Origin: Minisyncoccota bacterium
GTDB lineage: Bacteria > Patescibacteriota > Minisyncoccia > Phycocordibacterales > DASZYS01
Assembly (NCBI GenBank): GCA_035545295.1
Contig: DASZYS010000016.1
Coordinates: 1-30,771, forward strand
Length of the DNA stretch: 30,771 nt
Direction of reading: 5' to 3'
Shown here one piece after another: positions 6,835 through 22,039 of the stretch. A program made the translations under genes and the position numbers. The notes under the pieces are model-generated. The model was not told the DNA's origin, made no database searches, and was given only the letters and a program-made list of their open reading frames with translations. Numbering within the stretch: position 1 is the first letter of the stretch; every line of letters starts with the position of its first letter.

Positions 6835-6886
6835 GCACTACGTACTGAAAAACTCCCGCTGTCGGGAGTTTTTCAGTACGTAGTGC
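6835..6886 (-). terminator. 24-bp perfect hairpin after tRNA-Val
   Basis: GCACTACGTACTGAAAAACTCCCG-CTGT-CGGGAGTTTTTCAGTACGTAGTGC. Confidence 0.7.
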
Positions 6887-6957
6887 ATCCTGCAGAATTC
6901 GAATCTGCGACCTCACCCGTGTGAAGGGTGCGCTCTAACCAGCTGAGCTAAGGATGC
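6884..6957 (-). tRNA. tRNA-Val(CAC), CCA not encoded
   Basis: GCATCCT TA GCTC AGCTGGTTA GAGC G CACCC TTCACAC GGGTG AGGTC GCAGA TTCGAAT TCTGC AGGATGC A. Confidence 0.95.
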
Positions 6958-6966
6958 ATTTTTCGT

Positions 6967-7037
6967 TCGGGCTACCCGGTAACGCTCCGGGGCCTCATGC
7001 ACCCCATGCATGTATACTGCTTTTATACTATAGCCCG
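6967..7037 (-). tRNA. Atypical tRNA-Pro(GGG) with non-canonical D-loop and T-loop
   Basis: CGGGCTA TA GTAT AAAAGCA GTAT A CATGC ATGGGGT GCATG AGGC CCCGG AGCGTTA CCGGG TAGCCCG A. The acceptor, anticodon and T stems are perfect. It has the Pro identity elements C1-G72/A73 and the same arm lengths as the nearby tRNA-Pro(CGG). Confidence 0.85.
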
Positions 7038-7301
7038 TTTTGTTTTTGATAATCCAACCCTCACGGATAATTTTCTGGTGAAAATTTCCGCGAGCCTTAC
7101 AGGCTCTGTCTACTCATTCGCTCTCGAGGACTCGAGCTGAATGAGTCTTGCGGAAGCTGCCTATCGTCGCTTCCTCACCCGCCTCGGCTCAGTCAGCCTG
7201 CGGCCTTGCGAAGCTTCCCGTTGTCGCAGCTCGCTCGGGTCTCGCAAATTCTTTTCAGAATTTTTGCGGAAGTCCCCCGGACTTCCGGTCTTTGCTTTGT
7301 G

Positions 7302-7319
7302 GGGGTGCCGAGAATCGAA
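7302..7319 (-). repeat. 18-bp direct duplicate of the tRNA-Pro(CGG) 3' end (att-like scar)
   Basis: GGGGTGCCGAGAATCGAA at 7302-7319 is identical to 7344-7361. Confidence 0.85.
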
Positions 7320-7338
7320 TACTAAATCCTTGATAACT

Positions 7339-7412
7339 TGGTCGGGGTGCCGAGAATCGAACTCGGGTCTCACGAACCCGAATCGTGTATACTGCCCCTG
7401 TACTACACCCCG
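7339..7412 (-). tRNA. tRNA-Pro(CGG), CCA encoded
   Basis: CGGGGTG TA GTAC AGGGGCA GTAT A CACGA TTCGGGT TCGTG AGAC CCGAG TTCGATT CTCGG CACCCCG ACCA. Confidence 0.95.
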
Positions 7413-7450
7413 ACCAAGTTATCAAAGAGCCGCGGTCACGCGTATTTTTC

Positions 7451-7470: not shown

Positions 7471-7611
7471 TGCTGAAAAATCACGCCGCGCCGCCTTGCG
7501 CCAGTCGCGCTCCGCCCTTGCGGAAGCTGCACGAACCCTCGCTTCCTCACCCCGGCAAAACCACCGAAATTGAGCCTTCACGGCTCCTATAAGATACAAC
7601 AATATAGACAA

Positions 7612-7648
7612 AAACAAAACTGTCCGCCAATTGGGGGCAGTTTTGTTT
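7612..7648 (-). terminator. Intrinsic terminator of the 78-aa gene
   Basis: AAACAAAACTGTCC ... GGGGCAGTTTTGTTT hairpin. Confidence 0.65.
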
Positions 7649-19600: not shown

Positions 19601-22039
19601 AGGCTGAAGTTCCCTGTTGGCAGGCGTGAGATCCTTTTCCGCAACATAATCGATCTCCACTTGGCCGTTTTCGATATGCGCGTCGAGACCGAGCTCCTTG
19701 GTGCCTTTCACGAGCTGCTGAAGAATCTCGCCATGGGTCTTAAGGCCGCCGGTGAGGATATCGTTCGCACTCTTTTTCTCAAGCTTGGCAATATGATAAT
19801 GCTTCGTCGCACCGAGCCATACGCGCCCGAGTGCCTTGTCGAACTTGGCAAACCTGCCGTTTCCTCCAAGCTTCAAAACTCCGGCATTTTCAAGATCCTC
19901 TTTGAACTCTCCGCGCGCCTCTTCCTTGATGCGACCGAGGGTAACCTGGCGAAGATTCTCGTATACGAGCCGCTTCTGGCCGTCAGTGAGATCCTTATAC
20001 CCTTCGATCTTGTCGAGATCGCCGTCCTTGAAGCCGAACGTGTCCTTGAAATACTGCTCCGTGTTCTTTTCCGCGTCGCTCCGCTCCTTTCGTGCCTCCT
20101 CTTTTTCGGCCCCTGCCTCAGCCGGTTCGGCCGCTTCTTCTTTTTTTCCTTCCGGCTCTTCTTCGCCGGCCTTTTTCTCAGATTTCTCCTTCGCGGCTTC
20201 CTCGGCAAGCTTCCTTTCGACAGACTCGGCATACGTGTCCTTCTCCTGGCCCATTCTCACACCAACAAGAAATTTCGTGAATTCCTCAGCATATTTCCGC
20301 AAATCTCCTTTCGTGAGCCGTCCGACAAATTCGGAATCGAACACCACGTCGACATTCATGCCGTTGCCGAATTCCACGCCGCGTATTTTCCGCACCTCGC
20401 TGTCAAAACGCTCGCGATCTTCCGGCTTGAGTTTGCCGCGGGTCCTCTCAATATCGTGATAGTTCGAAGCAGATGCCAAGTCAAAAGCCTCTTTATCCTT
20501 TTCCGGCTCCGCCACCGGAGCGAGCACATGGTATACGATTGTGATTTTTCGTATATCTTCGTCGGAAAGGCCTTTTTCCTTCCAGAATCTGACAATCGGA
20601 TCATTGGCTATCTTTTCCGCCAGATATTCGTCGCCTTCGTATTTAACAGGCACTGCCGCCGCGCGCATCTCGTTTTCCCGCGCCAATTCCCTTTCTTTTT
20701 GCTCTTTTTCCTCTTCTTCGCGAGTTGCCTCAAGATGAAGTTGTTCGACAGGTACGCCCGTCGTGCCGCCTTCGACAAATGCGAGTTTGCCATCCTCGGA
20801 AAAACCGCTGATTTTGCGAGGCGTTTCAAATTGATCAACGCCCTGGCTTGTCCATTGAACGAAATCCCCTTCCTTTATCTGGAAAGGTTCCTCCTCGGCA
20901 TTTTTTTCTTCGGACGCAGTTTCGGGTTTTGTCTCGACAACCTGTTCGGACGAACTTGCAGTCTCGTTCCTCTTGATCGAAGCGACCATTTGAAGCACCC
21001 ATTCAAGATTCCGCGAGATAGTTCTGACTCCTTCTTCCATACTTCCATATCCTGATTCTCCCATGTCTATCATGCCCTTGAGCCATTCGGCATTCTCCGC
21101 TATATATTCTTCAAAGTCTTTAAGAGAGAAGCCTTCTTTGATCAAATCAGAGTATTTCGTCTCCAAAAGCTCCCTGAGCGCCGACTTGATCGCATCGCGA
21201 TACGGCTTAAGCTTCGCATTTTCCGCTTCGGCCTCATCCATCTCTCCCTGCTCGGCCTCGATTTCTTCCCCAGTAACTTCCGGCTGTACAGCGGGTGCTT
21301 CCGTAAGTTTCTTCTTTTCTTCCTCGGCCATCTGCTTTGCACGCGTTTCCGGATCCGAAGAACGCCCTTCTTTCAAGTCAGCCAGGAGAGCCCGTGCATC
21401 CTTATTCACTTTGTCGGCAAAATCCTCATCATCGGAGAAATACTCATCGATCCCCGCATCTCGATACGCCTCGCCAATGAGAGTGCGGAGCCGTTCAGCT
21501 TCATGTTTCCATCTTTCATGCGTTTTTGGAAACGGCGTTTCTTCACCCTCTGCAGTCTCACGGGAAATCTCGCCGCGAGCGATCTCATTAATTCTTTTCT
21601 GAATAGCTGGATCATTTCCAATCTCTAGCGTTTTTGCCAGATAATCCACACCATCTTCATTCGCCTGGTCTTGAAACTGATCAACCCAGCTTCGAATCGT
21701 TTCCTCATTGTACGGATCCTCTGGATAATAGGCCTGGAACAACACTGCTGCGATATCAAATTTCTGAGCATCGCTCAGTTGTCCGGCTTCAATAGCCTTA
21801 ACAACCTTATGGAGTGTATAGGATCCGAAACCATGCTCGCCTTGCAATTTTCGCCTTGTTTTTGGATCAAGCCTGCCTCCCCCTTCTTTCAGAGCCTGCC
21901 TTACAACATCGATCCTCGGGTCATTTTCGGGACGGTAGTCGGGATTTTCACCCGGCTTGGAACCAAGAGGCATACGGCGGCGCTTGGGGCCTTCATACTC
22001 TTCTCCGCCTTCATTATGTGGAAAATTTTCTTCGCTCAT
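16682..22039 (-). CDS. Giant hypothetical protein (about 1785 aa), acidic/coiled-coil with central hydrophobic helices and Pro/Ala/His-rich repeats
   Basis: Uninterrupted ORF. GGGAG precedes ATG 22039 and TG-A-TATAAT lies at 22070-22078. No recognisable catalytic motif. Confidence 0.88.
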   Translation of the reverse strand: MSEENFPHNEGGEEYEGPKRRRMPLGSKPGENPDYRPENDPRIDVVRQALKEGGGRLDPKTRRKLQGEHGFGSYTLHKVVKAIEAGQLSDAQKFDIAAVLFQAYYPEDPYNEETIRSWVDQFQDQANEDGVDYLAKTLEIGNDPAIQKRINEIARGEISRETAEGEETPFPKTHERWKHEAERLRTLIGEAYRDAGIDEYFSDDEDFADKVNKDARALLADLKEGRSSDPETRAKQMAEEEKKKLTEAPAVQPEVTGEEIEAEQGEMDEAEAENAKLKPYRDAIKSALRELLETKYSDLIKEGFSLKDFEEYIAENAEWLKGMIDMGESGYGSMEEGVRTISRNLEWVLQMVASIKRNETASSSEQVVETKPETASEEKNAEEEPFQIKEGDFVQWTSQGVDQFETPRKISGFSEDGKLAFVEGGTTGVPVEQLHLEATREEEEKEQKERELARENEMRAAAVPVKYEGDEYLAEKIANDPIVRFWKEKGLSDEDIRKITIVYHVLAPVAEPEKDKEAFDLASASNYHDIERTRGKLKPEDRERFDSEVRKIRGVEFGNGMNVDVVFDSEFVGRLTKGDLRKYAEEFTKFLVGVRMGQEKDTYAESVERKLAEEAAKEKSEKKAGEEEPEGKKEEAAEPAEAGAEKEEARKERSDAEKNTEQYFKDTFGFKDGDLDKIEGYKDLTDGQKRLVYENLRQVTLGRIKEEARGEFKEDLENAGVLKLGGNGRFAKFDKALGRVWLGATKHYHIAKLEKKSANDILTGGLKTHGEILQQLVKGTKELGLDAHIENGQVEIDYVAEKDLTPANRELQPAERELISKFNEAAREFARTPAEWNYSGASKFQNTKYWLVERNFRNLKKKIFDLRLLENGSNRNEAELYVNTIDERLRANQLFGSNSDIEEELLNIKDRKVWKKVLKDIVTERGIISAAGFLSRSTAMAIGGVTMLPFAAAGVGFVTGRSRTRGAQAERAEDMRRGARASLRKDEFKALAAELDAEKKKLRDLKAGAKLTGTRDAKNDVEAQQAKVNRLAKKFERKTHMERNFVPAEVLVNKIDDLEREFDSVNSNPKFESEKEKDAERERIMHKLKVRLFYTRQKLNRGLVSFGVGEGSDEIAERLREQLELRQKLSEAGTFLAMFEQNRPGKKSTDLAEKTERATKKIKGVLSWREKRINSAQAWQARRGGMRSAAWAFGLSALGQVAHNLLWEHHGTEGEFNSVKDRLSSMEQEFQKVKTGLSNQLAEEAKSEKALKAAMVAHQHAAAHAPAPAHAAVPPAPSAPAHEVPPPPSAPNAEHAVPPPPSAPAAPKEGFTLHPLDQGIVKGAHKPFWDGTELSIYYQGNASPEQMTSHFADFDQYASQISHEGMYAQVPDMRHLREEVEFLSKSFGGQRPELQQEILVRVQDLHDKLITSGATGRFDSQTDELLHIINERADGMRKILSHEMGSTVGLEQGAADHAAHEATGRAVPSHELHNDGDISNDVDRMRQGMGRGHHAPPVHHEGGNAPIQPEVHNDGDISNDSTIGSPQGGLNQTPLENLQPSHDPVLGDLHRILGGKEYEKAAKVFSHAEALDQFAGKGITPENAHVIAEDLGYISRNIHDQPLLAQDEVMKHVATIQREFPRMRMFANPADRTEFLSINASMREIIATHQRTVEKFNDVLQGLKYKNGKHAGYGLEWYRNHIAGKSSHTVGELRRTYIANHEDGTENPFVDWVYEKLDAKDVSPADNDALKMPLDEFIRGRLKPDGFGKSLLKSFQNTARIEAEPLHRYGYPPPPPPTRWPFYRR

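Follow-up and report, generated by a model that had tools for sequence, protein, structure and literature searches.

The window analysed here is the whole 30,771-nucleotide (nt) contig DASZYS010000016.1 of the Minisyncoccota bacterium assembly GCA_035545295.1. It carries, on its minus strand, a gene for a proline transfer RNA (tRNA) with the anticodon GGG in which the bases that join the D-loop to the T-loop are replaced: A18/G55 and A54/U58 are found instead of G18/U55 and U54/A58. The gene is real, and both its cloverleaf and the two altered loops are under purifying selection. The carriers that were checked have no other GGG gene, and the same pair of loops recurs as a module across phyla and in phages. 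Judging from these sequences, the product is probably a functional elongator tRNA-Pro(GGG) for the codons CCC and CCU, built on an alternative elbow module that recurs elsewhere. The residues concerned, U54, U55, A58 and G18, are regarded as all but invariable in cytoplasmic tRNAs, where they underlie the T-loop motif, the universal modifications at U54, U55 and A58, and the scoring used by tRNA finders.

A proline tRNA with an altered elbow

Read on the minus strand from 7037 to 6967 (Table 1), the gene forms a 71-nt class I cloverleaf composed of the 5′ acceptor strand CGGGCUA, the linker UA, a D arm (GUAU, AAAAGCA, GUAU), a single A, an anticodon arm (CAUGC, AUGGGGU, GCAUG), the variable loop AGGC, a T arm (CCCGG, AGCGUUA, CCGGG), the 3′ acceptor strand UAGCCCG and the discriminator A. 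Its stems are fully paired, with 7 base pairs (bp) in the acceptor stem, 4 bp in the D stem (two of them G·U), 5 bp in the anticodon stem and 5 bp in the T stem. CCA is not encoded; ACG comes next. The original prediction had described a cloverleaf with U8, A14, U33, G37, G19/C56, C1-G72, A73, G35-G36 and A32/U38, lying 9 nt upstream of tRNA-Val(CAC), and all of this was confirmed by reading the sequence. It was also correct that the D-loop AAAAGCA (7024..7018) and the T-loop AGCGUUA (6986..6980) depart from the usual ones; the loops of the sister tRNA-Pro(CGG) read AGGGGCA and UUCGAUU.

The identity elements of bacterial tRNA-Pro are all present, namely the anticodon GGG (7005..7003), U33, G37, A73, C1-G72, G35 and G36, and they are invariant in the 27 homologues described below. 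From the canonical elbow (G18-U55, G19-C56 and U54-A58), only G19-C56 is retained. The A32-U38 pair, to which the original prediction had drawn attention, is present, but the canonical tRNA-Pro(GGG) genes of relatives of the same order share the pair within an identical AUGGGGU anticodon loop, and it is therefore not particular to this gene.

Default gene finders overlook the gene

The expectation that standard scanners would overlook this tRNA was borne out by two programs. ARAGORN at default settings returned tRNA-Val, tRNA-Pro(CGG) and the transfer-messenger RNA (tmRNA) as the only genes in the window, and tRNA-Pro(GGG) appeared at 95% thresholds. Under default filters, the Rfam model RF00005 failed to detect the gene in the window or in the whole genome; with relaxed filters it scored 41.2 bits over model positions 1-71, the gathering score being 29.

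A strict cloverleaf scan that was blind to loop sequence was then applied to the entire 731-kb genome. It produced 24 matches, consisting of the 22 ARAGORN tRNAs, tRNA-Pro(GGG) and one match on contig C63 that ARAGORN did not list. Because this genome-wide scan returned almost solely known tRNAs, a chance origin of the cloverleaf is not credible. The same scan revealed no other hidden tRNAs for the amino acids that lack one in this genome, and the genes for these are probably unassembled.

The loops are fixed and linked, and the stems co-vary

Homologues were collected with three scans. The first, in which three loops were fixed, covered ~186,000 species genomes and found five more genomes with a near-identical gene in unrelated flanks. 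The second fixed the 5′ half only and left the D-loop and the entire 3′ half free, yielding 30 loci and, with the window, 31 sequences. Twenty of these combined ARAAGCA with AGCRUUA and eleven combined a GG-type D-loop with UUCRAUU or UCCGAUU; no mixed combination was found. In the third scan the T-loop and the GGG anticodon were the only fixed parts. It added sequences whose backbones diverge much further, from Microgenomates, Collierbacteria, Zambryskibacteria, Vogelbacteria and others, and every real tRNA among its matches had an A18-G19 D-loop (AAAAGYA, once AAUAGUA). Thus, in the scans that left one or both loops free, the states of the D-loop and the T-loop were perfectly linked.

Covariation was analyzed in 27 distinct homologues from Parcubacteria and Microgenomates. 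Stem positions were paired in 99.8% of cases (one unpaired cell in 567), and compensatory double changes occurred at 14 of the 21 stem pairs. None of 500 shuffles reached the observed pairing and covariation, slid controls collapsed, and RNAalifold independently returned the cloverleaf as the consensus structure. In the RNAalifold consensus the 32-38 pair co-varied from A-U to C-G, which is what a decoder adjusted to a G+C-rich anticodon should show. Invariant in all 27 sequences were A14, A18, G19, A21, A54, G55, C56, U58, U59 and A60, as well as U33, G34-G37, C1-G72 and A73. Because the loops are invariant and the stems co-vary, the folded RNA is under purifying selection with a fixed alternative elbow. 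These results uphold the earlier proposal that the loop changes were co-selected rather than products of decay.

A different T-loop variant was seen in some relatives whose tRNA-Pro(GGG) genes have a GG D-loop. At eight such loci (L002, L039, L049, L053, L054, L056, L060 and L072), position 55 is C, within a UCCGAUU loop or, at L072, UCCAACU. One genome carrying a C55 tRNA-Pro(GGG), G008, has no detectable TruB.

The same elbow occurs in other phyla and in phages

The module was also sought with any anticodon, using the AAAAGYA and AGCRUUA loops together with U8-A9, U33, R37 and G53/C61, a pattern for which ~9 chance matches were expected. Since both loops were fixed, their linkage in these scans is by construction; independent evidence of linkage comes from the other scans and from the arrays described below. 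In genomes at least 119 loci were found, and 95 of 102 among the matches listed were good cloverleaves. The genome matches listed comprised tRNA-Ile(GAU), at least 54 times, and tRNA-Val(UAC), both mostly from Verrucomicrobia; tRNA-Val(GAC) from gut Alphaproteobacteria; and single His, Lys, Ala, Met and Ile(UAU) tRNAs. Viral contigs gave at least 120 loci, with 112 of 125 among the matches listed being good cloverleaves that represented at least 18 anticodons. The original prediction had placed this class within proline tRNAs of Patescibacteria: it does occur there, but it is not limited to them, being found in other phyla, in phages and with other anticodons too.

The alternative-elbow genes of Verrucomicrobia lie in long tRNA arrays. 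Most array tRNAs have G55 T-loops (UGCRAnn or AGCRUUA) with A18 D-loops, and the rarer UUC T-loops occur mostly with a GG D-loop. Complete Verrucomicrobia genomes contain a canonical tRNA-Ile(GAU) and one or two alternative copies. Arrays of ~20 genes were noted at L122 (Chthoniobacter flavus Ellin428, NZ_ABVL01000011.1), L112, L153 and L201, all from Verrucomicrobia, where they amount to a near-complete set of alternative-elbow tRNAs beside the canonical housekeeping genes.

Among cultured phages, Pseudomonas phage 16Q (L331; OR001909.1) has a tRNA-Ile(GAU), annotated as tRNA-Ile, with AAAAGUA and AGCGUUA loops, and a tRNA-Pro(UGG) with AAUAGUA and AGCGUAA loops, among otherwise mostly canonical tRNAs. 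Phages KIL1-5 contain a matching tRNA-Ile sequence without an annotated feature in the records of this collection. The 16Q cluster is followed, ~100 nt past its last tRNA, by a putative homing endonuclease gene. The alternative tRNA-Pro(GGG) itself was not found in the viral contigs or in the phage collection. Two viral pattern matches for it were rejected as chance matches that are not tRNAs, and a match in coliphage ESCO13, whose tRNAs are canonical, covered the anticodon arm only. The window gene thus has the AAAAGYA and AGCRUUA loops of the phage and array tRNAs but not their location.

A second tRNA of the source genome has part of the same elbow. An initiator-like tRNA(CAU) on contig C11 (8131-8202, minus strand) shows an A1xA72 mismatch, a GGG/CCC anticodon stem and A11-U24, and its AGCAGUA and UGCAAAU loops contain A18/G55 and keep U54/A58. 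It was missed in a genome-wide first look with Infernal. Because this tRNA keeps U54/A58, the change from G18/U55 to A18/G55 is the core co-variation; the 54/58 swap with U59-A60 is a further fixed subtype. The stretch from anticodon arm to T-loop is the same in a genome of the same genus (G001), ending in TGCA. An order-wide check of initiator T-loops, made with a pattern that was too narrow, gave matches in the source genome and G001 only.

Distribution in the order and genome context

The source assembly is 94% complete, with 731 kb and 54% G+C, and its DNA occurs in soil and rhizosphere metagenomes. The order to which it belongs takes in genomes labelled Taylor-, Vogel-, Wolfe-, Harrison-, Colwell- and Zambryskibacteria. 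In an evenly drawn sample of 401 genomes from 118 families of this order, the alternative tRNA-Pro(GGG) was carried by 11 genomes from seven families. The alternative gene was the sole match to a generic tRNA-Pro(GGG) pattern in all ten carriers other than the source genome, and sister species of the same genera had very different canonical GGG genes or no match. In two genera, synteny placed the alternative gene at the locus where a sister species has the canonical one, and one relative (L033) holds canonical and alternative copies in tandem. This patchy, locus-preserving spread suggests lateral replacement or long-lived alternative alleles. The near-identity of tRNA-Pro(GGG) across families is not extreme, because other tRNAs of the same genome pairs are likewise 89-93% identical.

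In the source genome, CCC and CCU make up 41% of the proline codons. The assembly contains no tRNA-Pro(UGG), no second GGG gene and no other tRNA able to read CCC or CCU; these missing proline tRNAs weigh little, because several other tRNAs are lacking from the assembly as well. No tRNA-Ile(GAU) was found in it. A tRNA on contig C27 (3093-3166) has the isoleucine anticodon UAU, a canonical elbow and a high Rfam score. Among the 26 tabulated tRNA genes, 25, including tRNA-Pro(GGG), have no encoded CCA. The base after the discriminator is C in most of these and A in tRNA-Pro(GGG). The exact sequence of the gene was present in contigs of four RNA libraries, over the full 71 nt in three of them and in flanks other than the window's, which is a weak sign of transcription.

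No support for a tie to loss of uL1 or TruB

The original prediction had suggested that the altered elbow might be tied to lineage-specific loss of ribosomal protein uL1 or of T-loop modification enzymes. Neither tie was supported in the form proposed. A survey of 119 genomes, in which each family of the order was represented once, revealed no uL1 in carriers or non-carriers of the alternative gene. Lack of uL1 characterizes the order at large rather than the carriers, and four of five Verrucomicrobia with the same elbow have the protein; its loss was rejected as the cause. TruB was not found in the source genome, and it is present in 67 of the 119 genomes of the order, in three of ten other carriers and in all five Verrucomicrobia carriers, so that its loss was rejected as a strict link. 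The same elbow also occurs in phages. For EF-P, matches to PF01132 reached 19-31 bits only in this order, where the model is marginally sensitive, and the source genome gave three sub-threshold candidates.

Neighbourhood of the gene in the window

The gene belongs to a three-tRNA chromosomal cluster, with tRNA-Pro(CGG) ~300 nt upstream and, on the other side, tRNA-Val(CAC), which is probably the last gene of the same transcription unit. From its sequence, the promoter-like site ~190 nt upstream of tRNA-Pro(CGG) is a possible start of the tRNA transcript. The long inverted repeat that overlaps the last bases of tRNA-Val was not returned by a consensus terminator scan; its inner hairpin and T runs make it a likely bidirectional terminator.

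Table 1. Features of the tRNA cluster in the window, and alternative-elbow tRNAs of a cultured phage
Feature	Position	Strand	Evidence
tRNA-Pro(GGG), alternative elbow	6967..7037	-	sequence; Rfam 41.2 bits; ARAGORN at 95% thresholds; covariation in 27 homologues
tRNA-Val(CAC), canonical	6884..6957	-	ARAGORN; Rfam 67.3 bits
tRNA-Pro(CGG), canonical, encoded CCA	7339..7412	-	ARAGORN; Rfam 59 bits
Orphan tRNA-Pro T-loop, 3′ T-stem strand and 3′ acceptor strand (TTCGATTCTCGGCACCCC)	7302..7319	-	blastn match to tRNA-Pro(CGG) positions 52-69
Hairpin-rich spacer, dispersed repeat family	7061..7236	.	blastn of the spacer against the genome
Long inverted repeat, inner G+C hairpin, T run on either strand	6835..6886	.	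self-complementary blastn, 92%
Promoter-like site, TTGGCG, 18-nt spacer, TATATT	7601..7630	-	consensus scan only
Alternative-elbow tRNAs of phage 16Q, tRNA-Ile(GAU) and tRNA-Pro(UGG)	OR001909.1:20706-20776 and 21186-21256		

The 300-nt spacer between the two proline tRNA genes was considered as a remnant gene, which was ruled out when it proved to be a dispersed repeat family. Copies were found by blastn on contigs C1, C4, C5, C10, C18, C22, C25, C55, C59, C65 and C67, and those on C1 and C4 have a tRNA gene within ~130 nt or less. The hairpin-rich family occupies 7471-7572 as well as the spacer and is present on at least 12 contigs and in G001; several copies adjoin tRNA genes. The orphan tRNA-Pro fragment, 22 nt after tRNA-Pro(CGG), may be what is left of a vanished tRNA-Pro(UGG) gene or of an old insertion; in relatives, this cluster runs CGG-UGG-GGG. 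As read from the sequence, the flanks of tRNA-Pro(CGG) (7425..7413 and 7341..7330, minus strand; ttgataacttggt / ccaagttatcaa) are perfectly complementary. Their pairing would lengthen the acceptor helix of the precursor by ~13 bp and bury the encoded CCA, and it may be a processing signal.

A linked homing or other nuclease gene was looked for and rejected, since none adjoins tRNA-Pro(GGG) in the window or at ~25 related loci. The nearest nuclease in the window is an SNase homologue ~1 kb off, beyond tRNA-Pro(CGG). Neighbours in the window and at the related loci are ordinary genes, such as those for a trypsin-like peptidase, a Gmad2-domain protein and ParB, and no mobile-element gene is linked to tRNA-Pro(GGG) here. 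The window also contains the tmRNA gene at 325-723 on the plus strand (Rfam, 86 bits), with the tag peptide ANNSVASAKSVKSPYFASNDLAFAYALA.

Discussion

The difference between this tRNA and ordinary ones would be limited to the way in which the D-loop and the T-loop lock at the elbow. We propose that the outer stacking pair G19-C56 is retained and that the inner contacts are swapped as a set, from G18/U55 to A18/G55 and from U54/A58 to A54/U58, with A16 and A60 fixed. AAAAGYA and AGCRUUA would then constitute a self-consistent alternative elbow module, which recurs in phage tRNAs, long arrays and some cellular lineages. In a minority of species of this Parcubacteria order, the canonical gene appears to have been displaced from the native tRNA-Pro(GGG) locus by the alternative allele. 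We infer prolylation, CCA addition, ribosomal use and the actual three-dimensional contacts from these comparisons. The canonical U54/A58 pair has been described (PMC7912444), and RNase P, T-boxes and the ribosome recognize tRNAs by the outer G19-C56 platform (PMC4810234, PMC7912444).

The closest known relative is the canonical bacterial tRNA-Pro(GGG) (E. coli proL type; sister loci L003, L036 and L073). It shares with the window gene the 71-nt class I form, C1-G72, A73, the AUGGGGU loop with A32-U38 and G37, a 7-nt D-loop, a 4-nt variable loop and the locus, whereas the window gene differs by A18/G55, A54/U58 and the fixed A16 and A60. Having no uridine at either site, the window tRNA as read cannot receive the U54 and U55 modifications. 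An A54 in functional cytoplasmic tRNAs is known from the eukaryotic initiator tRNA and some eukaryotic tRNA-Ala, which have A54-A58 (PMC7912444, PMC7566577). Because those tRNAs are functional, the 54-58 pair can be changed without loss of function; however, they keep A58, U55 and G18, whereas A54/U58 is combined here with A18/G55, in bacteria and phages. A54/A58, R15/A48 and G30-U40 were stated not to be observed in bacterial or archaeal tRNAs (PMC7566577). The tRNAs of long arrays (PMC8421152) and phages (PMC10264068) have the same AAAAGYA/AGCRUUA loops or the U54 variant UGCRAnn with A18; in contrast to them, the window gene is chromosomal, lies in a cluster of three and is the only GGG copy that the pattern scan found in the assembly. 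Eukaryotic A54-A58 tRNAs and staphylococcal tRNA-Gly with G55 are known deviations, and long arrays and phage tRNAs are well described. A text search found no mention of 'T-loop', 'D-loop' or 'elbow' in PMC8421152 or, by term counts, in PMC10264068, and no description of the AAAAGYA/AGCRUUA pair was found in the open-access literature, subscription journals being outside the scope of the search.

Several observations weigh against a working elongator. A54/U58 does not have the same geometry as the U54/A58 reverse-Hoogsteen pair. The minimum-energy fold of the single sequence is not a cloverleaf (-27.3 versus -24.1 kcal/mol, a gap of ~3 kcal/mol). In certain sister species no tRNA-Pro(GGG) was detected, so that cells might do without this isoacceptor, provided that all four proline codons are read by tRNA-Pro(UGG). 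The RNA-library contigs extend into the flanks and might stem from precursors or from DNA contamination. A search for a CCA-adding enzyme domain (PF01743) found none in the 94%-complete assembly, which probably reflects assembly gaps or divergence. Finally, the staphylococcal tRNA-Gly species barred from translation are distinguished by a G55 T-loop (PMC7826273).

The last point leads to the possibility that this is a special-purpose Pro-tRNA used off the ribosome, as a non-ribosomal amino-acid donor or a regulatory ligand. The staphylococcal tRNA-Gly NP1-3 offer the precedent, having UGC or UGU for UUC, no T-loop pseudouridine, determinants in the D and T arms, and poor binding to EF-Tu and the ribosome (PMC7826273). 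Two cases of coexistence would also fit such a role, namely the tandem of canonical and alternative GGG genes at L033 and the canonical tRNA-Ile(GAU) that Verrucomicrobia retain alongside their alternative copies. The staphylococcal species, however, are found side by side with proteogenic isoacceptors, supply cell-wall synthesis by FemXAB and retain U54, whereas the window tRNA has A54/U58 and is usually the sole GGG tRNA. An isoacceptor with the same anticodon was found neither in this assembly nor in any of the ten other carriers, L033 being the exception. The anticodon loop, with G34, G37 and a co-varying 32-38 pair, is conserved in the manner of decoders, and no partner transferase or conserved transferase-like gene is among the neighbours at these loci, no genome-wide search for one having been made. 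Because the module carries at least 18 anticodons in phages, translation fits better than a dedicated chemistry, and we regard an off-ribosome role as improbable.

Somewhat less improbable, but still unlikely, is a functional tRNA whose elbow variant is a mobile resistant allele, repeatedly displacing the native gene because it escapes a factor that recognizes the canonical T-loop or D-loop. Such a factor might be a tRNA-cleaving toxin or a defence nuclease that attacks the RNA, or a homing-type nuclease that attacks the gene. The patchy spread in the order is in keeping with this, as is the finding that, at the same locus in the same genus, some species have the alternative gene and others a very different canonical one. 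The module is also common in viral contigs, phage tRNA clusters and long tRNA arrays; long arrays reportedly spread horizontally (PMC8421152), and phage tRNAs dodge tRNA-targeting defences through loop mutations (PMC10264068). On the other hand, tRNA-Pro(GGG) itself is absent from the viral sequences searched, its near-identity across families is not extreme given the similar identity of other tRNAs in the same genome pairs, no nuclease gene adjoins the gene here or at the related loci, and no toxin aimed at this elbow was identified. As for a decaying pseudogene or a chance cloverleaf, the misses by default ARAGORN and default-filter Infernal and the alteration of four near-universal bases are what such an origin would give. 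It is contradicted by compensatory changes at two-thirds of the stem pairs together with invariant loops in 27 distinct sequences, by homologues that are not recent copies of one sequence, by the status of sole GGG gene in the checked carriers, and by a strict genome-wide scan with just one other match unlisted by ARAGORN, and we consider it extremely unlikely. A working elongator tRNA-Pro(GGG) is the reading that we prefer.

The module may exist because it frees the tRNA from modification at U54, U55 and A58, because it evades T-loop-reading enzymes or toxins, or because a neutral alternative becomes locked in after it has formed. More tentatively, and with the balance somewhat against it, the A18/G55 elbow, with or without A54/U58, might be a second discrete elbow architecture that circulates in the bacterial mobilome, in phage tRNA clusters and long arrays, and has become fixed in some cellular tRNAs, tRNA-Pro(GGG) of Patescibacteria among them. 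Such tRNAs would be competent in translation, would need no T-loop-directed enzymes such as TruB and TrmA in order to fold, would be invisible to these enzymes and to T-loop nucleases, and would make up a separate, unannotated tRNA pool.

These results mean that genome and phage annotation systematically loses or under-scores a class of tRNAs. The module is general and amenable to study in cultured systems, with Pseudomonas syringae phages 16Q and KIL and Chthoniobacter flavus Ellin428 among its carriers. A further question is what makes the module favourable to mobile elements and reduced genomes; modification independence and evasion of elbow-reading enzymes are possible answers. The conserved, co-varying replacement of the elbow bases implies a second way of locking the L-shape of tRNA.

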